From a virus: a stretch of 45,907 nucleotides of DNA. The notes beneath the pieces are model-generated. The model made no database searches and was not told where the DNA came from. It worked only from the letters and a program-made list of their open reading frames with translations. This document shows, in pieces, positions 17,938-38,986 of this stretch. The stretch lies in IMG/VR virus record IMGVR_UViG_3300005336_000013, positions 1-45,907 of that record; one strand, written 5' to 3'. Each line of letters begins with the position of its first letter. Position 1 is the stretch's first letter. A program made the translations under genes and the position numbers.

Positions 17938-18157
17938 TTTTCCTGCCCACGGAGGCGAGCCCTGCCCTTCCGGCGCGCCCCAGCCTGCGGCCAGCGCCGC
18001 CAACGCGCGTCGGGGTGCCACCTCCGGCGATGACCCCGAATAGGCCCTTCTGCTTCGTAGTCAGGGGCCGGCCCTGGGCCGAGTCGTCAGCCAGCATCTT
18101 CCCGGCCTTGGCCTTGCTCGGGAACCCTCTGGATCTCCTGCCTGCCAGGAAGTCCAT
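17927..18157 (-). CDS. Small basic Gly/Arg-rich protein
   Basis: ATG 18157 overlaps the stop of 18157..18564 (TGATG). 76 aa. Confidence 0.4.
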   Translation of the reverse strand: MDFLAGRRSRGFPSKAKAGKMLADDSAQGRPLTTKQKGLFGVIAGGGTPTRVGGAGRRLGRAGRAGLASVGRKSGL

Positions 18158-18564
18158 CAGTTGTACTCCCCGGCGAAGAAGACGTTCGCCGTGTACCCGA
18201 TCGGATTGGCTCCGCTAGCGCTGCTGAAGCCAACGGCATAGGGCCGCGGGATGCCCTGGTTTTGGACCGCTCCGGAAACCCCGACATAGCTGACGAGCGG
18301 AATTGGGAAACTCCCAACCGTACTCACGGCGTCACGCTGGGCGATCAGGTAGGTGGCGCCTCCGACCCCGCCGAAGATCTTGACGCTGAAGGTTCCGGAA
18401 ACCCCCTGCGTGGTGGTCAAGGCAAACTGGCCAAAATTGAAGAATTTCGCCGGCACGGCATTCGTGCATCCCGTAAACATCGTTGAGGCGCCACCCTGCA
18501 GCGTCGTAACGCCCTGGGCGCCCGTGAATGCCAAACTACAGATCAGGCCGTTATAGTTAGCCAT
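18157..18564 (-). CDS. Beta-rich protein of unknown function (possible virion or decoration protein)
   Basis: 135 aa, Gly/Val/Thr/Ser-rich with beta-strand-like character. Sits between the terminase and portal genes. Confidence 0.45.
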   Translation of the reverse strand: MANYNGLICSLAFTGAQGVTTLQGGASTMFTGCTNAVPAKFFNFGQFALTTTQGVSGTFSVKIFGGVGGATYLIAQRDAVSTVGSFPIPLVSYVGVSGAVQNQGIPRPYAVGFSSASGANPIGYTANVFFAGEYN

Positions 18565-19462: not shown

Positions 19463-20047
19463 TTAGGCGTCCGCTGGCCTGTCTGCATGAATGGTTCGTG
19501 AGTGCCACTCCAAATACCGGATCGCCGCTAAAAGCACTTCTCTGCTGTCCTTGCACATACCAAGAATGGCGTTGCACTTGGTGCAGAGCAGTCCCCTGAC
19601 GGCACCGGTGAGATGATCATGGTCAAGACAGAACGATCTATTGGTCCCAGGAGAATCCGAGCGGCAAATCGCACAGCGCCGATCCTGCGCCTCCAGCATC
19701 GCCTGATAGGTGTCCTCGTCTATCCCGAGATAGGCCTTTCGTTTCCAGGCTACCGTTGTGGCACTTCTACATCGTTTGCACGTCGGCTTGACGTAGTTGG
19801 TGCTCTTCTCCAAGAATCCAGAGATCGGCTTGGTCTCGCCACATCGCTTGCACTTCAGGGATTTCAGTTTGAGCCTTTTGGCGTTGGCTAGGCTGTTCAC
19901 ATATCCGGTAGTCCTGGGAGCCGCTCCTGCCATCAACTCCGCACATCGCGAGCATCCCTTGATCCTATGTTTCCACACCGGCGGGTGATTATGTCCGCTC
20001 AGGTTGCCGAGCTCGTCAACGCCCTGGAAGCCCTTCCGCTTGCTCAT
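19463..20047 (-). CDS. Endonuclease VII family (HNH-type) nuclease
   Basis: CAICRSDSPGTNRSFCLDHDHLTGAVRGLLCTKCNAILGMCKDS matches the recombination endonuclease VII signature. Extra CxxC pairs upstream. Confidence 0.8.
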   Translation of the reverse strand: MSKRKGFQGVDELGNLSGHNHPPVWKHRIKGCSRCAELMAGAAPRTTGYVNSLANAKRLKLKSLKCKRCGETKPISGFLEKSTNYVKPTCKRCRSATTVAWKRKAYLGIDEDTYQAMLEAQDRRCAICRSDSPGTNRSFCLDHDHLTGAVRGLLCTKCNAILGMCKDSREVLLAAIRYLEWHSRTIHADRPADA

Positions 20048-20058: not shown

Positions 20059-21831
20059 CTAATGTACGAGTATTGCGGGCAGACCCGTATACCTCGTCGC
20101 AAACGGGATCGGCTCTCGATGTCGAACTTCCTCAACCACCGGAACGGCAATCGGCACCCAGCGGCTCAGGATCTCGTCAGCATGGGCCTGGCCCATCATG
20201 TCGAGCGTGTCTCGCTTGATGCTGGCCGGGTATTCGTTCACGGTGGTTTTCAGCACGTTCAGATGCAAGGCCGGGATGCTCGTCAGGTAGTACCAGTGGC
20301 CCATTTTTGCTTGGGCACCCACCAGGCTGATTCGGTCGTTCTTGGCCTTCTTGTTCCAGGCCTTCACATCGATGAAGCGCGGCATCTGAGTCGGCCTGGC
20401 GTCCCGAGGAGTGGACTTCCAGATCCGCTTCATCAGGCCGACGATCCCCTTGTCAGCCGGGGATTCGCACGAGTAGAAGTGGGTGTGCCAGATGCGCATC
20501 ATGCGCTGCATCTCATCGGCTCCCATGTCGGATTCCATCTCGTTGCTGACGCACAGGTCGAGAAGGATGAAATCGATCTCGCCAGCGATGCTGTAGGAGT
20601 CGATAGTCCCGATGACGGCGTCCGAGCCCTCCTGGTGGTTGTCGTCCCCCTTCCAGGCCGGGTCGCAGTAAACCGCCCGGAATTTGGGCAGATTCCCGTA
20701 GCGCTTGGCGAATTCAGCTGGCGTTAGCGGCTGGAAGAACTCCCATTGCATCGCCTGCTCGCCCGTGAGCGTCGGGTCGAGCTGGTACTGCAGATACCAG
20801 AACCGGTCGGTCCCGCGGCGCTTCATCTCGTTCGCGCGCTCCTTCGCCAGAGCTTCCACGGACAGCCTGGGTATGGTCGGGAAGTTCGGCTTATTGTCGT
20901 CGGTAAGGGCCGGCGTCTTGACGATGAAGTATCGCGGCCTCCCGTCTTCGTGCTTGTCCTCGAGCATGGGCTTGTAGAGCGACTGGATGTGGTAGGGGGT
21001 CCCGGCGGAAACCTCCCGGGACCAGGGAGGAGCGTTCAACTGCCGGAGTTGGTCGTACCGGTCCTTCAGTTCTTCCCGGACCGTTACAGAGTCCCGCGAG
21101 TCTTCCGCCTCCCAGTCGTCCAGGAGTTTGTAGTTGAACCCGGCGCCGGCCTTGCGGCTGCCCGCGGCCTCGGCCGTCATGTTCTTCTGGTCGCTCATGA
21201 ACTCCAGGTCACGGCACGGCCAGTCCCACTGCTCCTTCTCGCCCCACTCCGAGGGCGGGATCGTGAAGCGCGCTGGCTTCCCGGAGAGCGTCAGGCAGCC
21301 CTCTCCGAAGTGCTGCCGAATGTACCGGTTGTGGCGGTTCATGTTCTTGATGGATTCGAGGGCCCCCTTCGCGCGACGCTCCAGGTTGTGGGAGTAGAGG
21401 ACAAGAATGTCCAGATCGTCAACGATCTTGTGGCGCTTGGGGGCCCAGTCCGCGAACATTTTCAGGTGGAACGACTTCAGGGCACGCCGTGGCCATTCGT
21501 TGTGCATCCCGTCATAGGAATCGAGCTCTCCGAGCGCGAGCTTCAGGTAGGCCGCGCAGAGCTCGTCCCGGTGCCGCGGAGGGTGTAGGAGGGCCCGGTA
21601 GACTGGCCGCTTGTACCAGGTTTGCAGCGCGTAATGCCAGAAAGGGTTGTGATCCAGCCCGATTACGGCCACCGGGCGGCCCGTGACGAGCTGAAACACG
21701 ATCGCGGGGTCCCCTTCCGAGTACCGGGCTACCAATTCCGCCCCGGTGAGGATGGAAAGGTCGCGTTCGATGGCGATATTGGCCTGAAGGAGTATCTCGG
21801 GGTCGACGTCGGAGCGTTTTGGGGCGCTCAA
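20059..21831 (-). CDS. terL: Terminase large subunit
   Basis: 590 aa. Walker-A-like WPRRALKS, Walker-B-like YKLLDDWEAED, and a C-terminal nuclease-like AVYCDPAWKGDDNHQEGSDAVIGTI. TTG start overlaps the upstream stop (TTGA). Confidence 0.7.
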   Translation of the reverse strand: MSAPKRSDVDPEILLQANIAIERDLSILTGAELVARYSEGDPAIVFQLVTGRPVAVIGLDHNPFWHYALQTWYKRPVYRALLHPPRHRDELCAAYLKLALGELDSYDGMHNEWPRRALKSFHLKMFADWAPKRHKIVDDLDILVLYSHNLERRAKGALESIKNMNRHNRYIRQHFGEGCLTLSGKPARFTIPPSEWGEKEQWDWPCRDLEFMSDQKNMTAEAAGSRKAGAGFNYKLLDDWEAEDSRDSVTVREELKDRYDQLRQLNAPPWSREVSAGTPYHIQSLYKPMLEDKHEDGRPRYFIVKTPALTDDNKPNFPTIPRLSVEALAKERANEMKRRGTDRFWYLQYQLDPTLTGEQAMQWEFFQPLTPAEFAKRYGNLPKFRAVYCDPAWKGDDNHQEGSDAVIGTIDSYSIAGEIDFILLDLCVSNEMESDMGADEMQRMMRIWHTHFYSCESPADKGIVGLMKRIWKSTPRDARPTQMPRFIDVKAWNKKAKNDRISLVGAQAKMGHWYYLTSIPALHLNVLKTTVNEYPASIKRDTLDMMGQAHADEILSRWVPIAVPVVEEVRHREPIPFATRYTGLPAILVH

Positions 21832-22587: not shown

Positions 22588-22616
22588 TTGACAACTACGA
22601 ACGTTTACCGTAGATT
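22588..22616 (+). promoter_or_regulatory. Sigma70-type promoter for the plus-strand block
   Basis: TTGACA (22588-22593), exact 17-nt spacer, TAGATT (22611-22616). The ATG at 22626 is about 2-3 nt from the expected start site, with no Shine-Dalgarno. A 5-bp inverted repeat CTACG-N9-CGTAG (22595-22613) overlaps the spacer and -10. Confidence 0.6.
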
Positions 22617-22625: not shown

Positions 22626-22907
22626 ATGACCTCCGAACGGACACGCCTGACGCGGATCTATCGGCAATTCTCTGGAGCCAAGCTGAAGGCCGCCCGAGAG
22701 GCCATTGGGGTCTCGCGCAACCGCCTCGCGCCGTGGGTTGGCTGCACGGTGATGTCGATCTACAACTGGGAAACCGGGCGCAAAGTGCCGAGTGCCCAGT
22801 ATCTGGACGCACTGGCAGCCAATCTGCGGGTCAAGGTCGACGAGTTCTATGACGTGCAGGAAGGAATGGTAAGGACCGAGGATGCCAAGAGTCCAAAGCG
22901 GCGCTGA
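22626..22907 (+). CDS. XRE-family helix-turn-helix transcriptional regulator
   Basis: 93 aa. LKAAREAIGVSRNRLAPWVGCTVMSIYNWETGRKVPSAQYLDALAANL fits the XRE HTH pattern. Confidence 0.8.
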   Translation: MTSERTRLTRIYRQFSGAKLKAAREAIGVSRNRLAPWVGCTVMSIYNWETGRKVPSAQYLDALAANLRVKVDEFYDVQEGMVRTEDAKSPKRR

Positions 22908-23580
22908 AGTCACGATCGTGACTCTGGTTTACAGAAATTTAAAATGGCTAGATTTCTGCATGGAAGGCGTTGACTCGACCAGACAGAAGACGAAGTACCG
23001 ATGGCTGGTGGTGAGCAATGACGGCACCCCAGAGGTCCGCAGTGACCAGAGAATCACGGTAGATTTCATGAATGCCGATCCGAAGGAGTGGTACATCCCG
23101 AGAGTCTACAGAGCCTGGAACGAAGGGTTCCGACTGAGCCCAACGCCTCTCGTTGTGAATCTCAGCAACGATATGTACGGCTCCGACTATTGGCTCGATG
23201 AGCTGATGGATCTGAAGCGCAAGGATCCGAAGACGATTCCGTGCGGACTGCTCATCGAAAGTGGCCGCATTCCATCGGCGATGCCGGAATACGCACAAGA
23301 CTTTGGGATCACTCCGGGGACATTCAACAAGGCTGGCTTTCTGGCAGCGGCTGCGAGGTTGCGGCGGCGCGGCGAATACGAACCTGGCAGATTATTTGGT
23401 CCGACTCTTTTTGAGCGCCAGGAATGGTACGACCTCGGCATGTACCCCGAGGGCAACCCCGGCGGAGTCCCAGGCGACCGCTATCTCTATGAGAGATACC
23501 AGGAAGCTGGGTTCAGGTGGAGTACTTGCAGGGGGGCGGTTCTCTACCATACTCAGCTTGGCGAGCAAAGCGATTTATGA
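22882..23580 (+). CDS. Glycosyltransferase family 2-like (GT-A)
   Basis: VTIVTLVYRNLKWLDFCMEGV...WLVVSNDGTPEV...AWNEGFRLSPTPLVVNLSNDMYGSDYWLDELM follows the GT2 N-terminal layout. Confidence 0.55.
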   Translation: MPRVQSGAEVTIVTLVYRNLKWLDFCMEGVDSTRQKTKYRWLVVSNDGTPEVRSDQRITVDFMNADPKEWYIPRVYRAWNEGFRLSPTPLVVNLSNDMYGSDYWLDELMDLKRKDPKTIPCGLLIESGRIPSAMPEYAQDFGITPGTFNKAGFLAAAARLRRRGEYEPGRLFGPTLFERQEWYDLGMYPEGNPGGVPGDRYLYERYQEAGFRWSTCRGAVLYHTQLGEQSDL

Positions 23581-23616
23581 AAATCCTTACCCCTTAACCC
23601 GCCAAAGGAGGTGGCA

Positions 23617-24150
23617 ATGGGAAAGCTGACAATCACTGAGGCGCTCGCCGAGATCAAGACGATCAACGCGCGTATCGCCAAGAAGAGAACCGCGGTGATG
23701 CTGTACTTCGCGCGAGACGGAAGGCTGCGCGATCCGCTGGAGACCGATGGCGGCTCGATCGAGTTCGTGAAGCGAGAGCGCCAGGCCATCTCGGATCTCG
23801 AGGACCGCTTGGTCGCCATCCGCTGCGCGATCCAGGCATCCAATCTCGCGACCACGACCACGGTTGGAGAGATCTCGAAGTCCATCGCCGGCTGGCTGAA
23901 TTGGCGCCGGGAGATCTCCAAGGGCCGGCAGCAGTTCCTGGGAACGATGACGCAGCGCCTTACCGTCGTGCGCCAGGAATGTCTCAAGCAGGGCTGGTCC
24001 ATCACTGACAAGGACCCGCAGCCAGGAGAAGTCATCGTCTCGGTCAACGAGAAGCAGCTCGCCCAGGAGACTGAGGCGCTCGAGCATCTCCTTGGAGACC
24101 TGGACGGGAAATTGTCACTGCTCAACGCTACAACGACCATCGAGCTGTAA
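23617..24150 (+). CDS. Helical protein resembling the DIP1984 family (tentative)
   Basis: ATG 23617 lies 5 nt after AAGGAGG. N-terminal KLTITEALAEIKTINARIAKK and C-terminal LDGKLSLLNATTTIEL resemble, from memory, the ends of DIP1984-type proteins. Confidence 0.35.
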   Translation: MGKLTITEALAEIKTINARIAKKRTAVMLYFARDGRLRDPLETDGGSIEFVKRERQAISDLEDRLVAIRCAIQASNLATTTTVGEISKSIAGWLNWRREISKGRQQFLGTMTQRLTVVRQECLKQGWSITDKDPQPGEVIVSVNEKQLAQETEALEHLLGDLDGKLSLLNATTTIEL

Positions 24151-24155
24151 AGAAT

Positions 24156-24443
24156 ATGCCTTCGGTTGCGAAGCGGGAAAAGCGGCTGAATATGGGCTTG
24201 GCCTCTAAAGCCATCCCCCCTATCCCTTATGAAGGGATGCCAATGGAGCATGCCGGTGACAACCGGCGCAATGCAAAGCTCAAGGCTGACGAGGGAAAGC
24301 TGCTTATTTCACGAATGACCGATGAAAGTCTAAAGTTGCGCCAAATCCTGCGCTCGCGTGACGCACGGCGAGATCCGTGCGGCGTCCTTTCAGTTGCGGA
24401 CGCTCCCGGCGTGCAGGCTGCAATTTGGAGGCATATCCAATGA
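24156..24443 (+). CDS. Hypothetical protein
   Basis: 95-aa ORF with an ATGA overlap to the methyltransferase gene. Confidence 0.45.
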   Translation: MPSVAKREKRLNMGLASKAIPPIPYEGMPMEHAGDNRRNAKLKADEGKLLISRMTDESLKLRQILRSRDARRDPCGVLSVADAPGVQAAIWRHIQ

Positions 24444-25045
24444 GTCGAGAAGACGATTCCGTCGTCCATGCCCTGGCTGAACTATGTCAGCTCTATCAGA
24501 TAAAAACTCTGTTTCAGGTCGGGGCCTGTGACGGGTACGAGGCCTACGCGGTGGCTAGCAAGACGCAGTGCCGCGTCGTCCTCTTCGAGCCGGATCCTCT
24601 GTGCGCTGCGATGGCGCCCAGCCTCGACTGGCATGCGGTCATGGTCGGTGCTACCGACTGCGTGACAACCTTCTATGCCCATGGCGCGCGTGGGCTGTCG
24701 AGTCCGATCAAGCGCGGAGACGGAGAAGAGACTGAGATGCAACTCCGGCAGACGCGGCTGGACACCTTCTGCGAGAAGCATGAGATCTGGCCGGACGCGC
24801 TACTCGTGGACACTGAAGGGACCTCTCTGGATGTGCTTGAGGGATGCGGCGATCGGATTCTGAATAGTCTCAAGGTAGCGTACCTTGAATGCCAGACCTC
24901 GGCGTTTCGCCCTGGTATGCGATTGGTCGGAGAAGTGGACGCGCTGCTGGTTGCGCATGGCATGACTTCGCATCAGGGACCGCCTTCCTATGGAGCTGGC
25001 GATGCGCAGGGCAATTACACCTTCGTTCGGATGGCTGGGAAATGA
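24440..25045 (+). CDS. FkbM-family SAM-dependent methyltransferase
   Basis: 201 aa. LFQVGACDGYEAYAVA...VVLFEPDP...RLDTFCEK...ALLVDTEGTSLDVLEGC follows the FkbM (Methyltransf_21) pattern. Confidence 0.7.
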   Translation: MSREDDSVVHALAELCQLYQIKTLFQVGACDGYEAYAVASKTQCRVVLFEPDPLCAAMAPSLDWHAVMVGATDCVTTFYAHGARGLSSPIKRGDGEETEMQLRQTRLDTFCEKHEIWPDALLVDTEGTSLDVLEGCGDRILNSLKVAYLECQTSAFRPGMRLVGEVDALLVAHGMTSHQGPPSYGAGDAQGNYTFVRMAGK

Positions 25046-25530
25046 CTGCTTTTCGTCCCCTTGCCGAAAGGTTCTGGGAGAAGGTTGAGAAAACCGACTC
25101 CTGCTGGAATTGGACGGGCGGGACATGCAGGGGATACGGAGCCATTGGGCTGGGCGGAAGGGGGGCCTCGCAAGTCGGAGCGCACCGCGTCTCGTGGGAA
25201 TTGCACTTCGGACCAGTCCCGCCAGGGCTGGAGGTCTGCCACCATTGCGACAATAGGCGATGCGTGAATCCATCCCATCTCTTTGTCGGCACAAGGCAGG
25301 AGAACGCGCTTGATGCGGTCAGGAAGGGACGGCACAAGTGTAACTTTCCAAAACCGCCGACAGGGGAGAGAGCCTATCGTGCAAAGCTGACCCTGGAGCA
25401 GGTGAGAGAAATTCGCGCCCTCAGGGAGCGCGGTGCTTCAGGTCTTGCGATAGCCAAGATGTTTCCGGTAGTTACATGGCAAACGATATACAGCGTACTC
25501 TCTGGCAGATCGTGGGTGTGCGATAAATGA
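25042..25530 (+). CDS. HNH endonuclease (HNH_3-like) with C-terminal HTH
   Basis: CWNWTGGTCRGYGAI...AHRVSWELHFGPVPPGLEVCHHCDNRRCVNPSHLFVGTRQEN. ATGA overlaps at both ends. Confidence 0.8.
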   Translation: MTAFRPLAERFWEKVEKTDSCWNWTGGTCRGYGAIGLGGRGASQVGAHRVSWELHFGPVPPGLEVCHHCDNRRCVNPSHLFVGTRQENALDAVRKGRHKCNFPKPPTGERAYRAKLTLEQVREIRALRERGASGLAIAKMFPVVTWQTIYSVLSGRSWVCDK

Positions 25531-26444
25531 AGGTAGTTGTCGTCAACGATGCGATCACGCAAATTCCAGGAACCAGAACCTTCTGGTCAGACTTGGTGGA
25601 ATGGTTCGGCGCCGAGTTTGTTTGCGCTCCATTTCAGGATCTTCCAGCGCTAGCGTCCTCGATCGAATGCGATGTGATGATTCGCAACGGCTCATACTGG
25701 CCGGCCATCACGAGCAACGCCAAGCAGGTATCTCTGATTCAGGACATATTCGACGATTCACCTCTCAGGGCCATGCAGCGCGAGGCGATCGCTTCCTCAG
25801 TCCCGATTTATAACTCTTCTTTCACTGCAGAGAAATGCGGCGATGCCGGAGGCAAAGTAATTCCTCTGCCGGTGGATTTTAGAAGTTTTGAACCTCAGAA
25901 CGCGATGGGATGCCAGCAGGCTCTTGGCCTGCCCGATGGTTGCATTTGCTGGGTAGGAGCCACCCAGGGGCCTGCTGGCCATGTGAAGGGCTACGACATC
26001 TTTCTGAAGATCGTTCGCATGAATCCGGATCTCCACTTCGTTGGTGTCTTCAAGGACGCCATTCCTGATTCGTTCCCTCCGAACCTGCGATGCTTCCTGA
26101 GGCTCACTCACGAGGAGCTGGTGAAGGTGATTGGTGCCTGCCGCGTCGGCCTGTGTACCTCGAGAATGGAGAGTCAGCACCTGGCGGGAATCGAGATGGG
26201 GGCATGTGGATTGAAGCTCATTGTCCCCGACACGGGGGTCTATTGGAAGCGCGAGGATTTACCGATCTGGAGAGTCACGGATCCGACTCCGCAGAATTAT
26301 GCCGCTTCTATCCGCGGAGTATTGCCCGAGTCATCGTTCAATGAGCATGTGCGCGGACTGTGGCAGAAAGAATTCGACCGCCCGGTGATTCGGGCGCAAT
26401 GGGAGAAACTGATCGCGGAGGTGGAGAATGATCCCCCTAAATAG
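25527..26444 (+). CDS. GT-B fold glycosyltransferase (GT1/GT4-like)
   Basis: 305 aa. WVGATQGPAGHVKGYDIFLKIV...LCTSRMESQHLAGIEMGACGLKLIVPDTG resembles the GT4 C-terminal E..g....E.ma.G motif region. Confidence 0.6.
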   Translation: MKVVVVNDAITQIPGTRTFWSDLVEWFGAEFVCAPFQDLPALASSIECDVMIRNGSYWPAITSNAKQVSLIQDIFDDSPLRAMQREAIASSVPIYNSSFTAEKCGDAGGKVIPLPVDFRSFEPQNAMGCQQALGLPDGCICWVGATQGPAGHVKGYDIFLKIVRMNPDLHFVGVFKDAIPDSFPPNLRCFLRLTHEELVKVIGACRVGLCTSRMESQHLAGIEMGACGLKLIVPDTGVYWKREDLPIWRVTDPTPQNYAASIRGVLPESSFNEHVRGLWQKEFDRPVIRAQWEKLIAEVENDPPK

Positions 26445-26700
26445 GGAGGTGAACACCGTCACTGAGGAGGAATGGATCACCGCCACCTCAGTCGAGCAGC
26501 GTGCGTTCAGACAGTATTGGCATAGCAAGGGCTACGGCTGGTTCAGCTGCCGTCGGTGCGGCTACCCCACGAGCCATGGAACCGTGGGATGCGATGCCTG
26601 CCGACAGATCGAGAGTCCATGGGAGAAGCGCCAAGCGGAAGAGGCCAAGGCCAAGCGGCAATGTCCGCAATGCAAGGGACGCGGAGAAGTTGAGAAATGA
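26428..26700 (+). CDS. Small Zn-ribbon protein
   Basis: 90 aa with CRRCGYP...GCDAC and CPQCKGRGE (CxxCxGxG). GGAGG upstream of the start. ATGA overlap with the next gene. Confidence 0.5.
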   Translation: MIPLNREVNTVTEEEWITATSVEQRAFRQYWHSKGYGWFSCRRCGYPTSHGTVGCDACRQIESPWEKRQAEEAKAKRQCPQCKGRGEVEK

Positions 26701-27443
26701 TCTGGTCGATTCTCATCGCAGGAATTCCGGAGAGGTACCATGTCGTCCAGCCGCTCCTACTTTCGCTTCTCGAGCATCAGTCAGTGGCGCGTATGCCCGA
26801 CGTTGAGCTCCTTTACCTACTTGATAATCGACGACGTTCTGTCGGAGCGAAGCGCAACGCCCTCCTTGGAGCGGCTACTGGCGAGTATGTCTCGTTCGTT
26901 GACGACGATGATCAAGTCGCGAACGACTACGTCCAGAAAATCTACCGGGAGATCTGCAAGACGAGGAAACTAGCAGTGCCTGGGGATTGCCCGACCTGCG
27001 GAGGAACGGGATGCAAGACGTGCGGTGGCGGACATCCGGAATGTCAGCACAACTGCCCGGGGTGCGATGGAACAGGAGACACTCCGGGTCCATTCAGGGC
27101 CGACGTGATCTGCTTCGGTCAACGCTGCACACTTCAGCCCGCCGGCGTCATCCACGAATGCACCTACTCGCTGGCGCACTGGAAGGATCGGGCACCGGAG
27201 GCACGGCGACAACTCGCGCCCTCCGACAAGCCGAACATGCTGAACTGGAGCGGGCCCCCCTCGCACACCATGGCCTGGCGGCGCGAGACTGTCCAGGGGG
27301 TCCGCTTCGAAGAAAAGCAATTTGGTGAGGACGTGAGCTGGGTGGACAAGTGCTGTGAGCGCGCGCAGCGAGAGATTCAGATTCCAGGGCCTCCAATCTA
27401 TTTTTACAACTTCAACGAGATGACGAGCGCGACAAGGGGGTAG
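26697..27443 (+). CDS. Glycosyltransferase family 2-like with an inserted CxxCxGxG zinc-finger segment
   Basis: MIWSILIAGIPER...GAKRNALLGAATGEYVSFVDDDDQVANDYV gives the GT-A DxD region. It is followed by CPTCGGTGCKTCGGGHPECQHNCPGCDGTG. Confidence 0.6.
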   Translation: MIWSILIAGIPERYHVVQPLLLSLLEHQSVARMPDVELLYLLDNRRRSVGAKRNALLGAATGEYVSFVDDDDQVANDYVQKIYREICKTRKLAVPGDCPTCGGTGCKTCGGGHPECQHNCPGCDGTGDTPGPFRADVICFGQRCTLQPAGVIHECTYSLAHWKDRAPEARRQLAPSDKPNMLNWSGPPSHTMAWRRETVQGVRFEEKQFGEDVSWVDKCCERAQREIQIPGPPIYFYNFNEMTSATRG

Positions 27444-27445
27444 CC

Positions 27446-27679
27446 ATGGCAGACAAAGTCTCAGGACGAAGAGTTCGGGGAGCCAAGCTGGGAATGACCG
27501 TGCAGCCCAAGAAGCCGGGACCATTCGACAAGCTCGGCAAGATCATGGAGCAGGGAGCCGAGGAAGAGAACAAACTCGAGCTGCGTGGTCAGCGTCTGGC
27601 GGGTCGCGCAGCAGCCAAAGCACAGGGGAAGATCCCGAAGGCCAAGCCTGATTTCAGAAAGCGCGGAGTGAGGGCGTAG
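27446..27679 (+). CDS. Small basic protein
   Basis: 77-aa Lys/Arg/Gly-rich ORF that fits exactly between its neighbours. Confidence 0.4.
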   Translation: MADKVSGRRVRGAKLGMTVQPKKPGPFDKLGKIMEQGAEEENKLELRGQRLAGRAAAKAQGKIPKAKPDFRKRGVRA

Positions 27680-28798
27680 ATGTCGCAGGCCGGGGTTTAC
27701 TCAGAACTCAAAATGCCGTGGCTCTTCGCTCGGAAGCCAGAGTTACCCGAGGCCCCCCGTCAGGTCCACTGGATTCTTTCGGATCTCTGCAACCAGGACT
27801 GTTCGTTCTGTTCTTATCGTGTCTCGGGCAATCCCTCTAACGAGCTCTTTTCCGAGGGGGCGCGGCTCTCGGCCTATGGCCACGACAATCCTGTCCGCTG
27901 GGTCGATACCGATCGCGCGCTGCGGCTCGTGGACGAGATGGCATCCATTGGAGTGCGGGCTATTCAAGCGACCGGAGGAGGTGAACCCAGTTCGCACCCC
28001 GATCATGAGTTGATCTTTGAGAAAGTCGTGGATTCCGGGATGAAGTTGGCGCTTGTGTCGAATGGTTTCCGCTGGCGTGATCGACTCTTCCCTCTCATTC
28101 CGAGAATGGAATGGCTGCGCGTGAGCGTGGATGCCGGGACTGCGGCAACCTACTCCAAGATTCGACGCACACCCATGTCTGCCTTCACAAAGGTCCTGAC
28201 CAATATCGCCCACGCCAGAGAGATGATCTGGAACGCCTCATCTAAGACTACGCTTGGAGTCGGGTTCACTGTCACCCCTGACAACTGGATGGAAATCGTA
28301 GAAGGGTGCCAGATTGCCAAGGAATCAGGTGCCGACAACATTCGCATCAGTGCCATGTTTGGACCCGAAGACGAGCGCCCGTTTCTTCCGATCTATGATT
28401 CCATCAGGGCGCTCATCCTGAAAGCAAAGGGTCTGTACGAAGGCGACGGATTCACCGTCTACGATAACTTCGGATCGCGCCTTGACGATTTGAAACAGCA
28501 CAATCCGGACTACAACTTTTGCCCCTACCAGTTTTTTACAACCTACCTTGGGGGAAATCTCCAGATTTTTAGGTGCTGCGTGCTCTCGTATTCTCGCAAA
28601 GGGATGGTGGCTGGAGGAGATCTCACCCACAAGCGTTTTGATGACTTCTGGCGCTCAGAGGAGCGAAAGCGCGACCTGGAGTCTCTAGATCCACGAGGCT
28701 GCCCAAAATGCATGTTCAACGGCAAGAACAGGGCAATGCTCTACGTGATGGGCAACACGGAGTCCGACACAGCGCCACGTCACATGGATTTCCCCTGA
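27680..28798 (+). CDS. Radical SAM enzyme with a Cys-containing C-terminal (twitch/SPASM-like) region
   Basis: 372 aa. SDLCNQDCSFCSYR gives the CxxxCxxC motif and IQATGGGEPSSHPD the GGE SAM-binding motif. C-terminal Cys residues lie in FCPY, RCCV and GCPKC. Confidence 0.8.
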   Translation: MSQAGVYSELKMPWLFARKPELPEAPRQVHWILSDLCNQDCSFCSYRVSGNPSNELFSEGARLSAYGHDNPVRWVDTDRALRLVDEMASIGVRAIQATGGGEPSSHPDHELIFEKVVDSGMKLALVSNGFRWRDRLFPLIPRMEWLRVSVDAGTAATYSKIRRTPMSAFTKVLTNIAHAREMIWNASSKTTLGVGFTVTPDNWMEIVEGCQIAKESGADNIRISAMFGPEDERPFLPIYDSIRALILKAKGLYEGDGFTVYDNFGSRLDDLKQHNPDYNFCPYQFFTTYLGGNLQIFRCCVLSYSRKGMVAGGDLTHKRFDDFWRSEERKRDLESLDPRGCPKCMFNGKNRAMLYVMGNTESDTAPRHMDFP

Positions 28799-29433
28799 TG
28801 AAGTTCTGCAAGAAGTGTTCAACCGATAAGGCAGAATCAGAGTTCTATTTCGATTCTTGCAAGCAGCGCCTGTATTCCTACTGCAAGGCCTGCCATCTCT
28901 CCTTGACATCCGATTGGGCTGGTCGCAACAAGGCTGTAATAGCCGAGAGTGCGAGAAAGAGATATCGCACCAATCCAGAGCGCTTCAAGGAGCAATCGGC
29001 AGAATGGCGAAAGTCGCATAGGGCGATCTTCCTGAAGAAGAATCGCTATCAGTGGTACAAGCGATGGCATCATTGCGTTGAGGGTCTCGGAGGAAAATGC
29101 GCCTGTTGCGGCGAATCCAGATTAACGATGCTGGAGATCGACCATGTCGGCGGAAAGGGGAACATTCATCGAAAAGCAACTGGCGGATCAGTGGGCACCT
29201 ACAATGAAATCATCGCACTAGGCTTTCCGAGGGACAGGTTCCAGGTCCTATGCTGCAACTGCAACAAGAGCAAGATGCGAAATGCCGGGTTCTGCGAGCA
29301 CGAGACCGGGCCGGTGGCCAAGGACGGAGCGCTACTGTCCAGGGAATCAGAGATTCAGCTTCCCCTGATAGTCCCCGAGTCCCGCTTCGATCGTTTCAAG
29401 CGCCGTTTCGACGCCTCTATCGGCATCGCATGA
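28798..29433 (+). CDS. HNH endonuclease with N-terminal Zn-ribbon (paralog of 13965..14495)
   Basis: LGGKCACCGESRLTMLEIDHVGGKGNIHRK...VLCCNCNKSKMRNAGFCEHE. TGATG overlap with the radical SAM gene stop. Confidence 0.85.
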   Translation: MKFCKKCSTDKAESEFYFDSCKQRLYSYCKACHLSLTSDWAGRNKAVIAESARKRYRTNPERFKEQSAEWRKSHRAIFLKKNRYQWYKRWHHCVEGLGGKCACCGESRLTMLEIDHVGGKGNIHRKATGGSVGTYNEIIALGFPRDRFQVLCCNCNKSKMRNAGFCEHETGPVAKDGALLSRESEIQLPLIVPESRFDRFKRRFDASIGIA

Positions 29434-29660
29434 CCTACCACGTCCGTCTGATCCTGCACGAGGCTGACAGCACTCCCTGCTGCGATGTGGATAATCCCAT
29501 GGAGACCGAGGTGTCGCTGGTCTGGCTCTATAAGCCAGGGATGGCAATCATGATGGACAACGGTCCGTTCCCTTGCCGGCATGGCAAGCCGGCTGTGATA
29601 CGAACCTGCACGCTGGAGGTGCCGACGAATGAGCAAGTGCGACCAGCACCGCAGTTTTGA
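29430..29660 (+). CDS. Hypothetical small protein
   Basis: 76 aa from ATG 29430, which forms an ATGA overlap with the HNH stop. Confidence 0.4.
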   Translation: MTYHVRLILHEADSTPCCDVDNPMETEVSLVWLYKPGMAIMMDNGPFPCRHGKPAVIRTCTLEVPTNEQVRPAPQF

Positions 29661-29859
29661 TGGGCGGGACCACCACGAGTGGGGAAGCTGGGAATCGAAG
29701 GAGGAGGGCGGGTTCATCATCTACACCCGGGGCGCCCGGGTGGGCCATCTCGAGCCGTTCTCCAGACGCTGGCAGGAGCGCAAGTGCGCCGAATGTGGCT
29801 TCGTGGACGCTTCAGCGATCCTGGGGAGCGTCGACATCCTTGGGCTGGTGCCACGATGA
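29629..29859 (+). CDS. Hypothetical small protein
   Basis: 76 aa. GGAGG lies 9 nt upstream of the start. ATGA overlap with the next gene. Contains one CAEC pair. Confidence 0.45.
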   Translation: MSKCDQHRSFDGRDHHEWGSWESKEEGGFIIYTRGARVGHLEPFSRRWQERKCAECGFVDASAILGSVDILGLVPR

Positions 29860-30701
29860 AACTGACCGCGTGCCTGACGATCAACAACCGAACGCCTGAA
29901 GTCTGCGGGAAGGTCGCTGACTCTCTCCTGCTGCCCGGGAACCTGCCAGACGAGCTCGTGGTCGTGCTGGACCGCTGTACCCCGGAGGTGAAAGACGGGG
30001 CCCATGCCGCCTATGACCAGCTGGATTGTCCCGTGCGCTGGATCACCATCCCCGGGGAGCCTGGCTGGCGCTCGCCGGTGAAGGCATGGAACCTGGCCTT
30101 TCTGGCAGCCACCGGTGACGTGCTCTACTGCTTCTCGAGCGAGACGGTGCAGGAAGCTGGGAACCTCATCAGGGTGAGACAGCAAATGCAGGACGAACAC
30201 TACGGGTACTTCGATGGCTGGGCTGGCGATGGCCCGCGTCCGGAGTTTGGTAGTCACTGCGAGGTCTCCGTCTACCACGGCTCCGTCTCCTGCTCCTGCG
30301 GTCCTTACGGCCAAGAGGTCAACTGGAACGGCTCAGCGCCCGGAAACCTGTTCTGTGATGCCGCTCACCCGCGGCCCCTGGGCTTCATCTGGGCCGCTCC
30401 CCGCTCTGCCGTGAGCGCCATAGGCGGGTACGATGAGGAGTTCGCGAAGGGCTTCTGGTACGACGACAATGACTTCTTCTATCGCCTCTGGAAGCAGGGC
30501 CTGGACTTCGTGTTCGACGACTCCATCTCGGGGACCCACCTGCACCATGCCAGGCAGACACTCGAGACTGAGGAAGGGCGTTGGGGAATCGCCAAGAATC
30601 AGCAGACCATGCTGGCCAAGTATGGCTGCGTGAATCCGCTGGAGACTGAGATGATCAGGGAGGAACGCAAACCCGGCAGGACTATCTGGAGGCACCCGTG
30701 A
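29856..30701 (+). CDS. Glycosyltransferase family 2-like (GT-A)
   Basis: 281 aa. LTACLTINNRTPEV...ELVVVLDRCTPEV...AWNLAFLAATGDVLYCFSSE...GGYDEEFAKGFWYDDNDFFYRLWKQGLDF follows the GT2 layout. Confidence 0.6.
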   Translation: MKLTACLTINNRTPEVCGKVADSLLLPGNLPDELVVVLDRCTPEVKDGAHAAYDQLDCPVRWITIPGEPGWRSPVKAWNLAFLAATGDVLYCFSSETVQEAGNLIRVRQQMQDEHYGYFDGWAGDGPRPEFGSHCEVSVYHGSVSCSCGPYGQEVNWNGSAPGNLFCDAAHPRPLGFIWAAPRSAVSAIGGYDEEFAKGFWYDDNDFFYRLWKQGLDFVFDDSISGTHLHHARQTLETEEGRWGIAKNQQTMLAKYGCVNPLETEMIREERKPGRTIWRHP

Positions 30702-30916
30702 AGAAAAAGAAGACCGAGAAGACCGAAGCAGAGCCGTTCCCCAGGCACCTTCCCGACAAAGCCATGGAGGACGAGCAGTGGAAGGACCGCATGGGCACTG
30801 CCATGCACGCCGCTGTCAACGAAGCCCTGCGGGGGATGGAGCCGACCGCCAATGGCCGTGCCGTGTACTGGGGCGGGGACAGGCTCAAGGCCATGCTATT
30901 CATCGCGCGCCGGTAG
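30698..30916 (+). CDS. Hypothetical protein
   Basis: 72 aa. GTG start forms a GTGA overlap with the upstream stop. Confidence 0.4.
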   Translation: MKKKKTEKTEAEPFPRHLPDKAMEDEQWKDRMGTAMHAAVNEALRGMEPTANGRAVYWGGDRLKAMLFIARR

Positions 30917-30925
30917 GAGGCACCC

Positions 30926-31384
30926 ATGAAGAAATTCTCCAAGGAAGACCTGATCCGCCTCGCTGAGAAGGTGAGAGCGCAGAACACCCCGCGATGGGTC
31001 CAGGAGATCGAGGATAGCGCAAAGAAGTACGGAGCCGGCTTCACCGGCGATGCCACGATTGATGAACTACCTGCCATTGAGAAAGAGAGCCAGGAGGGAC
31101 TGCGAATCGGGAAGTACGGGAACCTGCCCAGCCCCGAAGGAGAGACGCCCACCTTCGCTGTGGCGACTGGCACGAAGGTGTCCAGCTATACCGGATTCCG
31201 TTTCACCGAGGCACCCTCACTCTTCGAGTCTCACCGACCAAAGCAGTCCACTCTGCTCGACTGGGAATGGGCCACCGTTCCCTGGTACGCCCGCCTGCTG
31301 GGCCTCCTACGTCTCCCCTACGACCTCCTGAAGTTCATCGTCACCGGCCGCCTCATCGTCATCCCCTGGCCCTGGAGGTGGTGA
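30926..31384 (+). CDS. Hypothetical protein with a Trp/Leu-rich hydrophobic C-terminus
   Basis: 152 aa. AGGAGG lies 5 nt upstream of the start. C-terminal WYARLLGLLRLPYDLLKFIVTGRLIVIPWPWRW. Confidence 0.5.
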   Translation: MKKFSKEDLIRLAEKVRAQNTPRWVQEIEDSAKKYGAGFTGDATIDELPAIEKESQEGLRIGKYGNLPSPEGETPTFAVATGTKVSSYTGFRFTEAPSLFESHRPKQSTLLDWEWATVPWYARLLGLLRLPYDLLKFIVTGRLIVIPWPWRW

Positions 31385-31385
31385 G

Positions 31386-31640
31386 GTGATGGACCGCCTT
31401 GTGAACTGGTTCCTGGCCCCCAGGAAAGCCGCCATGCAGGTCGAATTCGATCTCCTGGTGGCCGGGTCCAACTTCCACGAGAGAGTAGTCCGAGCCAAGT
31501 TCATCCGAGAGCTCGCCCCGGTGGTCGGCCTGGACCTGTCCCGTCTGACCAAGCCCCTGGAGTCCTACCACATCCGAACCCTGAACATCCTGGTCACTGA
31601 AATCATCAAGCGCGTCGAGGACGCCAAGGATTCAGAATGA
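31386..31640 (+). CDS. Hypothetical protein
   Basis: 84-aa ORF starting at GTG 31386 or ATG 31389. Overlaps the next start by 4 nt. Confidence 0.45.
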   Translation: MMDRLVNWFLAPRKAAMQVEFDLLVAGSNFHERVVRAKFIRELAPVVGLDLSRLTKPLESYHIRTLNILVTEIIKRVEDAKDSE

Positions 31641-31864
31641 CCAAGAAGCCCAAGCCCCACCAGCTCACCGCCAAAGAATTCAACAAGGCCTACCTGGCAC
31701 TCAAGGAAGACTCCATCGTTGGCTGCCAGGTCCATGACTGTGGTAGACCGTTCCATGCCCTCCTGCCAGCCATAAATCGCTGGGTCTGCAAGAAGCATCT
31801 CGCCGAGTACTTGAGGCTCCCCTCCTGGCCCCTGCCAGGTCACCGGCCCAACCGTTCCACATGA
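31637..31864 (+). CDS. Hypothetical protein
   Basis: 75-aa ORF with ATGA overlaps at both ends. Confidence 0.45.
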   Translation: MTKKPKPHQLTAKEFNKAYLALKEDSIVGCQVHDCGRPFHALLPAINRWVCKKHLAEYLRLPSWPLPGHRPNRST

Positions 31865-32019
31865 AACAACTCCTCGGCTGCTCCCTATTCGGCCTCGGCC
31901 TCCTCCTGGCCTCCTTCTGCTTCCTCCTCTGGAGCCGCTCACTCGCATGGAGCGCAGGCCTCACCCTCGCCGGCTTCCTCCTCGCCTACCTCGGATATAA
32001 ACTCACCGAAGAGGAATGA
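31861..32019 (+). CDS. Small membrane protein (two hydrophobic segments)
   Basis: 52-aa ORF below the track cutoff: MKQLLGCSLFGLGLLLASFCFLLWSRSLAWSAGLTLAGFLLAYLGYKLTEEE. ATGA overlap with the upstream stop. Confidence 0.45.
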   Translation: MKQLLGCSLFGLGLLLASFCFLLWSRSLAWSAGLTLAGFLLAYLGYKLTEEE

Positions 32020-32020
32020 G

Positions 32021-32335
32021 ATGACCCTCGCCTACCACCTCCTGCCCCCACGCCGCATCTGGTGGTTCCTAACCGACTGGAAGACCCTCTGCATGTTCGA
32101 CTGGCCCTGCAGTCACTGCGGCCAGAACGTCCGACTCAACGGAGTAGGCTTCCATGCCATCTGGTTCGACCACCATGACCCCACCTGCAAGCAGTCCAAC
32201 TGGCTCAACTGGCCCAACCGCCACAAATGGCGCCGCTGCCTGAAATGCTTCCGACGTGACATGCACGTCCTCCTCGACTACATCGGTGCCCGCTGGGACT
32301 TCAGAAAGAAATGGAACTGGGGCATCGAAAAATGA
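32021..32335 (+). CDS. Trp- and Cys-rich hypothetical protein
   Basis: 104 aa with unusually many Trp residues plus CSHC and CLKC pairs. Confidence 0.45.
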   Translation: MTLAYHLLPPRRIWWFLTDWKTLCMFDWPCSHCGQNVRLNGVGFHAIWFDHHDPTCKQSNWLNWPNRHKWRRCLKCFRRDMHVLLDYIGARWDFRKKWNWGIEK

Positions 32336-32547
32336 AGCGCTCCTGTCAACGCTGTGGTCACGTCCCATCCGTCTCCCATATCTTTACCTCATCCGGTCTC
32401 CTGAACTACGCCTCCGTCATCCTCTGCCCCTCCTGCGCCAGAACCCTTTCCCACCAGATCCGCTCCTTCCTCTCCGACCTCGGCTCCCCTCAACCAAAAG
32501 GCCCCAAAGTACCCAAATTAAGGGTCATTTCCTATGACGAAGAGTAA
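32332..32547 (+). CDS. Small Zn-ribbon protein
   Basis: 71 aa from ATG 32332 (ATGA overlap). Contains CQRC and CPSC pairs. Confidence 0.45.
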   Translation: MKRSCQRCGHVPSVSHIFTSSGLLNYASVILCPSCARTLSHQIRSFLSDLGSPQPKGPKVPKLRVISYDEE

Positions 32548-32622
32548 CCAATCTGGTTGACAAAACACTTATTGCCCAAAACCCGAACCCCTTCATTCTT
32601 CACCAATTCCCCAAATCTGCTC

Positions 32623-32650
32623 TTGACATACTCATACCGACTGCTCTAAA
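32623..32650 (+). promoter_or_regulatory. Promoter-like element (weak -10)
   Basis: TTGACA (32623-32628), 16-nt spacer, TCTAAA (32645-32650). Further TTGACA hexamers occur at 32557 and 32807 without convincing -10 boxes. Confidence 0.25.
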
Positions 32651-32655
32651 GAGAG

Positions 32656-32880
32656 ATGAACACCTCTCTCCAAGTAGGTAAAGACCTCAGAAATTCTGCA
32701 GAAAATCTGACAGACAACTATCGAATCCGACAGCTCGCTCAGGGGGACACCCTCCCCACCGTCTGGGTGGCCCTCGCTGTCACCTCTGCCAATCTATTGA
32801 CACTCACAGATATGTCATTGATTCCATTACACTTCCAGACATACATGAAGGGATATGTACCAGGGGAGATGCATCAATAA
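32656..32880 (+). CDS. Orphan ORF in the AT-richer island (doubtful)
   Basis: 74-aa ATG ORF with atypical composition for this genome. No motif recognised. Confidence 0.25.
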   Translation: MNTSLQVGKDLRNSAENLTDNYRIRQLAQGDTLPTVWVALAVTSANLLTLTDMSLIPLHFQTYMKGYVPGEMHQ

Positions 32881-33104
32881 CTCTTGCTGCTGTGCATCGG
32901 ATCGGCCCAAGTGCATGACACTGCGATAGATATAGGAATCTTCGCTGGGTTACAGAATATCCCTTACGGGACTACGCGATAGTCGTATATTGTCAACTGT
33001 GCCTGCTGTGGGCTCGGTCAGATATCCGCCTTCGGCAGCGACTGTAGGCTCTGTCTACTCACTCTGATACAGCCATCAAACAGTATTTACTCAAGGAGTT
33101 ATCT

Positions 33105-33587
33105 GTGTCTGGTCGTCCAATGATAGATCCTAAGAAGGCTTTGGATATGCGTCTTGCTGGCTGTTCGAACATGGTGATAGCTGAGGCCTTTGAAGTGAGC
33201 AAGGCAGCGGTGACGCATCACTTCAAGCGCAAGGTGCGGAGGCGGAACAAGGTTCGAAGACCGCGTAAATGTCTGTGTGGGTGTGGGGTTTTGACGCAGC
33301 GGCGAAAGTACGCATCGCGGGAATGCTATTTCCGGTATGTGTGCAAGAGGCCGTATGTGTCGTGGAGGCAGGGTCAGAGGATAGCGCGAGTACTGGTGAG
33401 TCAGCATTTCGAGTTGAGGCCTGGAAACGTGGTTCACCATGTAGACGGCGACAACCGGAACAACGCCTTGGGGAATCTGTGGGTTTTCGAGTGTCACGCG
33501 GATCACATGAGCCACCATCGCGGGGGATTACGAAAGCCGATATGGAAAGGCTCGGACTGTCAAGTCTTTGTCGCTGATTCTCCTTGA
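33105..33587 (+). CDS. HNH endonuclease with N-terminal HTH
   Basis: GNVVHHVDGDNRNNALGNLWVFECHADHMSHH gives the HNH core. N-terminal LAGCSNMVIAEAFEVSKAAVTHHFKR is HTH-like. Starts at GTG 33105 or ATG 33120. Confidence 0.8.
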   Translation: MSGRPMIDPKKALDMRLAGCSNMVIAEAFEVSKAAVTHHFKRKVRRRNKVRRPRKCLCGCGVLTQRRKYASRECYFRYVCKRPYVSWRQGQRIARVLVSQHFELRPGNVVHHVDGDNRNNALGNLWVFECHADHMSHHRGGLRKPIWKGSDCQVFVADSP

Positions 33588-35271: not shown

Positions 35272-35352
35272 CCTAGAATGCCCCGCGCTGTCGCTGGGCT
35301 GCCTTGTAATGCATTTGCAATTCTACTATCATGGCCTCGCCTTGGGAGGCCT

Positions 35353-38975: not shown

Positions 38976-38986
38976 CTTCTTCCCCT

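Follow-up and report, generated by a model that had tools for sequence, protein, structure and literature searches.

What would a phage of 46 kb do with five glycosyltransferases (GTs), a methyltransferase and a radical S-adenosylmethionine (SAM) enzyme, a set that takes up about one-fifth of its genome? The question is raised by IMG/VR virus record IMGVR_UViG_3300005336_000013 (positions 1 to 45,907, all of which make up the window analyzed here), in which six of these enzymes are encoded in a plus-strand gene island and the seventh beside the portal gene. We propose, as a tentative reading held at somewhat less than even confidence, that soluble enzymes of the island put a glycan, methylated and tailored by radical chemistry, on the proteins of the virion. 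Such a pathway had been suggested in an earlier note made from the sequence alone; circumstantial evidence now argues for it (a GT in the head module, an enzyme pair in structural modules of other phages and an island present in all assessable relatives), but the argument from Ser/Thr-rich fibres on which the note had leaned fails. As judged from gene content, the conserved core of the island is a pair that the note overlooked, the radical SAM enzyme and the GT that we call GT2c. The enzymes in question are as follows.

22882-23580, plus strand: GT2a, a glycosyltransferase of GT-A fold (AlphaFold and Foldseek; 133 homologues)
24440-25045, plus strand: FkbM-family methyltransferase (Pfam PF05050, Methyltransf_21; TIGR01444)
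25527-26444, plus strand: GT-B, a GT4-like glycosyltransferase (phrog_2170, 1e-9; profile against PDB)
26697-27443, plus strand: GT2 enzyme with a zinc-ribbon insert (Pfam Glycos_transf_2, 35.5 bits against a cutoff of 23.3)
27680-28798, plus strand: radical SAM enzyme with a twitch/SPASM-like C-terminal Cys domain (Pfam PF04055)
29856-30701, plus strand: GT2c, a GT-A enzyme (GT2/GT7-like), conserved partner of the radical SAM enzyme (sub-threshold Pfam matches; TarS profile match)
16662-17501, minus strand: GT-A glycosyltransferase overlapping the start of the portal-like gene (Pfam at family level and structure model)

The radical SAM assignment is confirmed by a PF04055 score of 64.5 bits against a cutoff of 29.5 and by the CX3CX2C and GGGEP motifs. 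Across 25 homologues the invariant positions are C37, C41 and C44, the GGGEP motif, and C281, C299, C300, C341 and C344 toward the C-terminus, and these five C-terminal Cys residues would fit a single auxiliary cluster of the twitch-like kind rather than a full SPASM domain; the SPASM match in Pfam is weak (E = 0.049), with PF13186 on record for several family members. The closest solved relatives in profile searches against PDB are BlsE (9e-12) and DesII (1e-7), followed by PqqE, SkfB, viperins and MoaA. BlsE, a cytosylglucuronate decarboxylase, and DesII both act on nucleoside- or nucleotide-linked sugars, but only the core barrel of the island enzyme (residues 82-226) aligns with them, sequence searches found no solved relative for its C-terminal Cys domain, and its scores lie far below the NCBIfam cutoffs. 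All of the named NCBIfam radical SAM families were in fact missed (N_Twi_rSAM, 62.7 against 170; BlsE, 33 against 400; DesII, 16.6 against 450; MftC, 29.6 against 265; viperin, 45.9 against 180). The subfamily itself comprises 205 clusters at 50% identity (E ≤ 1e-30), with homologues of 38-45% identity on 19 IMG/VR contigs beyond the close relatives, and the only matches in deposited phage records are at about 25% identity. Two homologues (P0363 and P0082) carry inteins inserted exactly at the third Cys of CX3CX2C (…CSF|C…VVHN|CAYR…), and in many other members, 500-1150 aa long, the match is broken into two or three segments, pointing to further inteins near GGGEP.

A radical SAM enzyme in such a setting might also mature a precursor that the GTs then glycosylate, the product being a small molecule or peptide comparable to mycofactocin (MftC, MftF and a methyltransferase) or to the nucleoside antibiotics (BlsE). 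This would accord with BlsE as the best solved relative, with the several small open reading frames (ORFs) of the island, and with weak NCBIfam matches of the radical SAM enzyme to MftC (3.7e-7) and of the zinc-finger GT2 to MftF (2e-3). Those matches are far below the family cutoffs, however, conservation across relatives is lacking for every small ORF, GT2c alone co-varies with the radical SAM gene, and peptidase or other pathway genes are missing, so that we consider such a product extremely unlikely. The lack of a conserved small ORF is also why a ribosomally synthesized and post-translationally modified peptide, or a mycofactocin-like compound, was dismissed as the main model.

Clustering of the ORFs of 24 viral loci showed that GT2c is the sole gene family that travels with the radical SAM gene; the two occur together in 21 of these loci, and the exceptions include truncated contigs. 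They abut in most loci, and in the window they are parted only by an HNH gene and two small ORFs. In contigs of T4-like myoviruses the pair is flanked on one side by gp13/14- and gp15-like genes together with one small ORF, and on the other by genes for the terminase large subunit, sheath and tube. The terminase gene directly follows the pair, and two genes upstream of the pair is that of a gp15 homologue whose conserved tail bears a mucin-like SPSxS repeat. This gp15-type tail sheath stabilizer (L009 8562-9500, Pfam 1.8e-60; also in L005, L007, L008, L010, L012 and L018) is extended at its C-terminus by some 95 residues that end in the SPSxS repeat, and is a candidate O-glycosylation acceptor. 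The podovirus MW202801 (L053, MW202801.1 19640-24303, in a deposited genome of 40 kb) encodes a distant radical SAM homologue (25% identity) with a GT2c-like gene. Here the pair lies 3′ of the major capsid gene, after one small ORF and on the same strand, and is followed by genes for a PhyH-type dioxygenase, a methyltransferase, a NodB-like deacetylase and a GT-B, all of them between the capsid and tail genes. GT2c-like GT2 genes also adjoin or lie near the radical SAM gene in the contigs L028, L034, L037 and L039, which come from metagenome-assembled genomes (MAGs) or genomes.

The GT2c domain also occurs in fusions, with further GT domains in the jumbo-phage contig L016 (about 800 aa) and with methyltransferase domains in L002 (822 aa) and L017 (983 aa); a 965-aa protein of L002 had no match in phage records. 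It is possible, albeit doubtful, that the radical SAM enzyme and GT2c form an uncharacterized two-enzyme module, widespread in phages, that installs a radical-tailored sugar on virion proteins and, with exchangeable accessory GTs and methyltransferases, produces a variable glycan coat in environmental podoviruses, T4-like myoviruses and jumbo phages, amounting to serotypes that recombination swaps among genomes otherwise almost the same. An expanded cassette with two radical SAM genes, a Glyco_transf_25 enzyme and a Methyltransf_24 enzyme was observed in a different phage, which has a family A DNA polymerase (L027, a 47.5-kb contig of Logan SRR14194034). The homologue of p637 that the window shares with this phage was considered as a co-transferred acceptor and set aside, the impression being of a conserved podovirus tail (nozzle-type) protein.

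The seventh enzyme is encoded in the left arm, where the structural genes lie on the minus strand.

11551-12654, minus strand: major head protein (MCP; phrog_1357)
14702-16669, minus strand: portal-sized gene
20059-21831, minus strand: terminase large subunit (TerL)

That a fifth GT-A gene lies beside the portal gene was borne out, since Glyco_tranf_2_3 is matched by 17 of 27 family members (E ≤ 0.01) and the predicted structure matches GT-A structures at an E-value of about 3e-9. The window protein itself has no Pfam match of the GT2 type, and a profile search against PDB sequences gave nothing useful; the fold was settled by structure prediction, with a pLDDT of about 90 in the model core. 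The protein has D111-x-D113 and ED motifs and an invariant His. Structurally it is matched best by the protein O-glycosyltransferases LH3, COLGALT1, Mimivirus R699 and ppGalNAcT, and a GT of mycobacteriophage Che8 is among the viral matches. Residues 1-35 (17397-17501, minus strand) are predicted to be disordered (pLDDT <50) yet are strongly conserved, with P19, V21, N22, I23, A24, R27 and R30 invariant in 27 sequences, and this segment looks, from its conservation pattern, like a docking or targeting peptide.

Relatives of the window phage were found through the terminase at 70-97% identity, and in these the GT-A gene always adjoins the portal gene. At 66-75% identity GT-A is as conserved as TerL, portal and MCP, compared with 40-68% for the island enzymes and no conservation of the small ORFs. 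In all relatives whose contigs extend that far, the island is found with its position and gene order unchanged. One relative, L045 (IMGVR_UViG_3300025910_000022), is nearly the same phage (TerL 97%, portal 95%, MCP 96%, GT-A 95%, FkbM 93%) with other island alleles (GT2a 60%, GT-B 58%, zinc-finger GT2 70%, radical SAM 48%, GT2c 46%). At the DNA level the two share 81-90% nucleotide (nt) identity over the structural arm, FkbM and part of GT-B. Similarity ends exactly at 27679/27680, is lost over the radical SAM gene and nearly all of GT2c, and returns at about 30663, with only some 200 nt of the intervening HNH/small-ORF segment still aligning; hence the radical SAM-to-GT2c segment has been replaced essentially as one block. 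A further break lies inside GT2a, most of which has lost similarity, and the mosaic breakpoints fall at gene boundaries. The pairwise identities of the radical SAM enzyme and GT2c also disagree with the TerL relationships. Cassettes are thus exchanged between near-identical phages, a feature that the earlier note had not remarked upon.

We favor virion proteins as the target on several grounds. First, a GT-A is fixed in the head module, with protein O-glycosyltransferases as its best structural matches; second, the radical SAM-GT2c pair lies inside late structural blocks of unrelated phages; and third, the island is kept throughout the lineage, with a reshuffling of alleles that fits an exposed, selected structure. 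To these may be added the position of the pair close to the SPSxS-tailed gp15 homologue in the T4-like contigs, the soluble and acidic nature of all the enzymes, the absence of flippase, lipid-carrier, oligosaccharyltransferase and integrase families from genome-wide Pfam sweeps, and the mycobacteriophage precedent (PMC12619734).

The remaining island enzymes bear on a second explanation. The GT2-like reading of 22882 has little from Pfam (E = 0.07, 13.5 bits), and it is upheld by an AlphaFold model (pLDDT 95.8, from an alignment of 24 of the 133 homologues) whose Foldseek matches are to the GT-A/GT2 and GT27 structures K4CP, RmlT, TarP, WrtF and GalNAc-Ts, at about 1e-10; of the acidic motif only D97, in NSDM, is invariant. 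The GT-B/GT4-like protein has no Pfam match of its own, but a profile of seven orthologues matches the C-terminal nucleotide-sugar domain of GT4 structures (WbaZ-1, 3.3e-6; Tll1590, 6.8e-6; MshA, 4e-3), and Glyco_trans_1_4 is matched by two orthologues. The zinc finger of the GT2 at 26697 is likewise real as an insert of 39 aa (about residues 97-133) with three CxxCxGxG motifs; it is lineage-specific, missing in all seven orthologues examined, L045 included, despite an identity of 84% over the rest of the protein in one phage. The enzyme has an invariant DDDD and, among 22882, 26697, 29856 and 16662, is the only one to reach a Pfam gathering score of the GT2 type. For GT2c, the GT2- and β4GalT-type matches, Glyco_tranf_2_3 (6.7e-5; 23.4 against a gathering score of 27) and Glyco_transf_7C (2.9e-4), are sub-threshold, and support comes from a profile match to TarS (1.6e-3); SSE occupies the usual place of DxD, and a DDxD lies further downstream. 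The folds of 26697 and 29856 rest on sequence profiles, models having been made for 22882 and 16662. The FkbM assignment is secure (PF05050, 37 bits against 22.7; TIGR01444, 47.3 against 37.7) and the enzyme is presumably a sugar O-methyltransferase; in relatives this slot is occupied by one to three enzymes of the FkbM, Methyltransf_24 or class I kinds. GT2a, GT-B and the zinc-finger GT2 are specific to the window lineage and a few other contigs (L001, L003 and L027).

A combination of GT2, GT4, FkbM and radical SAM enzymes is the usual make-up of cellular polysaccharide loci. The island might thus remodel the host envelope, its soluble enzymes acting at the inner membrane face on lipid-linked or cell-wall glycans (O-antigen, capsule or teichoic-acid-like) to mask receptors, exclude competing phages or aid release. 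GT2a has wall-teichoic-acid and polysaccharide enzymes (TarP, RmlT, K4CP) among its best structural matches and GT2c matches TarS, a chromosomal cluster of Zavarzinella formosa joins GT9/GT2, GT2, this radical SAM family and a methyltransferase, and the allelic replacement described above resembles the evolution of O-antigen loci. This is also the role usually given to phage GT clusters in the literature (PMC7029224). Yet the Pfam sweeps confirmed the earlier note in finding no Gtr-type component (GtrA flippase, membrane GtrB or GtrC), and over the whole genome they revealed no flippase, lipid-carrier or oligosaccharyltransferase family, no initiating phosphoglycosyltransferase and no Wzx/Wzy. 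Nor does any island enzyme have a transmembrane segment, as had been said, the maximum hydropathy over 19 residues being <1.3 in a crude scan. The sweeps found no integrase either, which makes a lasting benefit from seroconversion unlikely, and envelope remodeling leaves unexplained both the GT-A in the head module and the pair inside the structural operons of other phages. We therefore consider it a serious alternative, although an unlikely one.

The same sweeps, applied to ORFs of ≥60-75 aa outside the island, returned only PDZ, DUF7736, HNH, Endonuclease VII, SU10 adaptor, capsid (Phage_capsid_4), three coiled-coil-type and weak DUF4394 matches, the proteins of the island being accounted for in their own Pfam search. 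They detected no thymidylate-synthase-like hydroxymethylase, C5-methyltransferase, TET-like dioxygenase, kinase or DNA polymerase, in agreement with the previous statement that neither a hydroxymethylase nor a base-modification kinase is encoded, and the second route, by C5-methyltransferase and TET-like dioxygenase, is absent as well. These results bear on a third explanation, hypermodification of DNA, in which one GT would put a sugar on a base and the others would extend or tailor it, shielding the genome from restriction and CRISPR nucleases, and in which the radical SAM enzyme might create the attachment point or tailor the sugar. Phage GT-A (TarP/JGT-like) and GT-B enzymes do build DNA glycans (bioRxiv 10.1101/2023.12.21.572611), the swapping of cassettes between near-identical phages fits a nuclease arms race, the pair stands directly before the terminase gene in the T4-like contigs, and in a Laterigemmans element it lies near ParB-like and McrBC-like genes. 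However, the known routes require enzymes that make 5-hydroxymethylcytosine (5hmC) or 5-hydroxymethyluracil (5hmU), which the sweeps did not find (bioRxiv 10.1101/2023.12.21.572611; PMC12838424). The lack of a kinase or DNA polymerase in the sweeps also counts against it, as does the acidity of all of the island enzymes (isoelectric points of 4.9-6.5). Moreover, the DNA glycans that we know of are shorter than the glycan implied by four or five GTs and an O-methyltransferase. We judge a DNA target to be quite improbable, and the specific idea that the radical SAM enzyme makes a new attachment point on DNA, allowing glycosylation without 5hmC, to be very improbable.

Several observations weigh against virion proteins as the target and are the reason for our caution. 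No acceptor was identified in the window: the fibre proteins, which had been described as extremely Ser/Thr-rich, contain 22-24% Ser plus Thr, which we judge ordinary, no ORF of the window has a mucin-like tract, and the C-terminus of MCP is ordinary and not Ser/Thr-rich. Collagen-like acceptors, considered in view of the LH3 and COLGALT1 matches, were rejected as there are no GXY runs in coding frames. The similarity of the portal-adjacent GT-A to protein GTs is weak (TM-scores of about 0.45-0.5), and GT-A folds are all broadly alike. The island heads an early-looking operon, with a helix-turn-helix (HTH) gene first and many small ORFs, that is divergent from the structural operon, and in the jumbo-phage contigs L014-L016 the radical SAM-GT2c pair is found among metabolic genes. 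Sets of GT2, GT4 and FkbM enzymes are, finally, equally typical of O-antigen and capsule loci.

If virion proteins are nevertheless the target, a soluble, cytoplasmic glycan-assembly line together with the portal-adjacent GT-A would glycosylate proteins encoded by the phage itself. Nucleotide-sugars would come from the host, as genes for sugar activation are missing from the phage. The twitch-type radical SAM enzyme would tailor one sugar by decarboxylation, deamination, oxidation or epimerization of the BlsE/DesII kind, its substrate being either a nucleotide-sugar that GT2c then transfers or the residue that GT2c has just added. GT2a, the GT4-like GT-B and the zinc-finger GT2 would extend the chain and the FkbM enzyme would O-methylate the glycan, while the head-module GT-A, and here we infer freely, may attach the first sugar to the capsid or another particle protein during assembly. 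Recombination of the radical SAM-GT2c block and of other GT alleles would make the glycan differ from strain to strain and so define phage "serotypes" of a kind. The enzyme folds and families, the pairing, the presence of the island in all assessable relatives, the cassette replacement and the lack of membrane and hydroxymethylcytosine machinery are observed, and what is inferred is the acceptor, the order of the steps and the radical SAM chemistry.

The island is embedded in an operon that begins in a 117-bp divergent gap facing the minus-strand structural operon and whose other features are as follows.

22588-22616, plus strand: sigma-70-like promoter candidate, TTGACA-17-TAGATT (sole such site in the genome, against 0.14 expected)
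22626-22907, plus strand: XRE-type HTH regulator, first gene of the operon (Pfam HTH_31, 1.6e-10, and HTH_3)
23611-24150, plus strand: p179, a coiled-coil-like, non-conserved ORF (only phrog_1491, 5e-16)
24156-24443, plus strand: small ORF of 95 aa, not conserved
25042-25530, plus strand: HNH_3 homing-type endonuclease (Pfam HNH_3, 2.5e-17; phrog_826, 2.5e-33)
26428-26700, plus strand: CxxC-rich protein of 90 aa, not conserved
27446-27679, plus strand: basic ORF of 77 aa whose end is exactly the recombination breakpoint
28798-29433, plus strand: HNH/EndoVII-like endonuclease that splits the radical SAM-GT2c pair (phrog_2255, 2e-15; gene call)
29430-29859, plus strand: two overlapping ORFs of 76 aa, not conserved

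The plus-strand ORFs are as tightly coupled as had been described, with overlaps of 1-32 nt or gaps of ≤36 nt from 22626 to 31864. Of the seven products named in the earlier note, six stand as families. The seventh, a DIP1984-like protein at 23617, has no match in Pfam or NCBIfam (at E of 0.01 or 0.1) or in PDB, only phrog_1491, and as its gene is absent from the orthologous islands it lies outside the conserved set. The consensus promoter claimed for the operon is partly upheld: the TTGACA-17-TAGATT site is unique and sensibly placed, but its -10 element has four of six matches and it precedes the HTH gene rather than the first GT. With the HTH start codon 10 nt beyond the site, the mRNA would have almost no leader. 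The total of promoter-like and terminator-like sites in the island region is not above chance, only the strict TTGACA site being so. The two HNH genes within the island (25042 and 28798) had been overlooked, the former, whose start overlaps the FkbM stop (ATGA), by the gene callers also. The endonuclease at 28798-29433 is a paralogue of that at 13965-14495 on the minus strand (34% identity, 5e-22), and there are six HNH or Endonuclease-VII-type genes in the 46 kb (13965-14495 and 19463-20047 on the minus strand; 25042-25530, 28798-29433, 33105-33587 and 35086-35823 on the plus strand). Because HNH genes occupy different slots among close relatives, we regard them as mobile (selfish) insertions of the free-standing homing type and not as members of the pathway.

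The window represents a complete, circularly closed phage genome, with an exact 40-nt terminal repeat (1-40 identical to 45868-45907) and a unit of 45,867 bp, and two other public assemblies hold the same genome broken at other points. Neither megablast of the island nor tblastn of the terminase gave a match in 50,697 deposited phage records, and no replication, recombination or integration genes are recognizable anywhere in the genome. The otherwise unannotatable right arm encodes a PDZ-domain phage protein of 313 aa (39591-40532, minus strand; PDZ_6, 1.7e-16), and GC skew is markedly negative (-0.16 to -0.25) at 31000-33000 and 38000-39000 relative to elsewhere in the genome. An unusual spot for structural-looking genes, adjoining GT-A and lying between those for terminase and portal, is occupied by p288 (18575-19441, minus strand, 288 aa) and p135 (18157-18564, minus strand, 135 aa), which are conserved, very low in charge (p135 has only six charged residues) and rich in Gly, Ala and Thr; searches found no homologue of known function for either, and p288 had no match in PDB. 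The MAG labels of related contigs (Saccharibacteria, Thermodesulfobacteriota, Planctomycetota and Omnitrophota) were discarded as a guide to the host, being inconsistent and probably due to the binning of phage contigs. The pair does occur in two planctomycete assemblies, a possible host clue: in Candidatus Laterigemmans baculatus (L028, NZ_WRPR01000047.1) on a 55-kb element carrying Prim-Pol, ParB-like and McrBC-like genes, and in Zavarzinella formosa (L039, scaffold 3) in a chromosomal GT/methyltransferase cluster adjoining a transposase.

If our proposal is correct, glycan coats would be common among soil, freshwater and marine phages; the radical SAM genes do often lie within structural modules. 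Such coats would bear on phage-host recognition, on particle stability, on the evasion of defenses and grazers, and on how "auxiliary metabolic" GT genes in viromes are read. The exchange of a block between phages that are otherwise almost identical amounts to a natural experiment, and the genes concerned form a defined set that can be synthesized for testing. Even if the target were DNA or the host envelope, the conserved radical SAM-GT2 pair would be a new enzymatic couple worth characterizing, and it is in any event a concrete, testable lead. In one respect the island is less exceptional than the earlier note held, because multi-GT clusters are common in environmental phages and the function proposed for this one is putative. 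In the literature searched we found no description of the radical SAM partner, the head-module GT-A or block exchange between near-identical phages.

To our knowledge virion glycosylation has so far been shown for only a few mycobacteriophages, and radical SAM chemistry has been linked to no viral glycan. In Che8, Corndog and Myrna, Freeman and colleagues (2023; cited in PMC12619734 and PMC12801897) are said to have found that soluble phage GTs, accompanied in some phages by methyltransferases, act in the cytoplasm to glycosylate capsid and tail proteins of the phage that encodes them. The island resembles these systems in having phage-encoded soluble GTs and a methyltransferase, and a Che8 GT is a structural neighbor of the portal-adjacent GT-A, but it differs in its five GTs, one of them embedded in the head module, and in its radical SAM enzyme. 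The mycobacteriophage glycans are located at the C-termini of capsid and tail-tube subunits according to PMC12619734, whereas the window has no recognizable C-terminal acceptor tail and comes from an unrelated, uncultured phage. Phage DNA-glycan clusters (C5-MT with 5mYOX/TET, or ThyS, together with GT-A/GT-B) are likewise GT-A/GT-B clusters of metagenomic phages with TarP-like GT-A folds, but our genome lacks enzymes that generate hydroxymethylcytosine, and a radical SAM enzyme is not mentioned for those clusters (bioRxiv 10.1101/2023.12.21.572611). Bacterial O-antigen and capsule clusters and Gtr modules share with the island the enzyme classes (GT2, GT4 and FkbM) and the allelic replacement, but the island has no membrane, flippase or polymerase component and is found in an apparently non-temperate phage and in every assessable relative. 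In chloroviruses and giant viruses, GT-GT-methyltransferase proteins of the PBCV-1 A064R type build methylated oligosaccharides on the capsid protein in the cytoplasm, and comparable fusions to further GT and methyltransferase domains occur among the relatives of GT2c, in proteins of 800-980 aa. The hosts there are eukaryotic, no sequence relationship to the island is detectable beyond the GT-A fold, and we know of no radical SAM enzyme in that system. Although not a sequence-level member of any of these systems, the island would by analogy appear to work like the particle-glycosylation systems known from phages and giant viruses.

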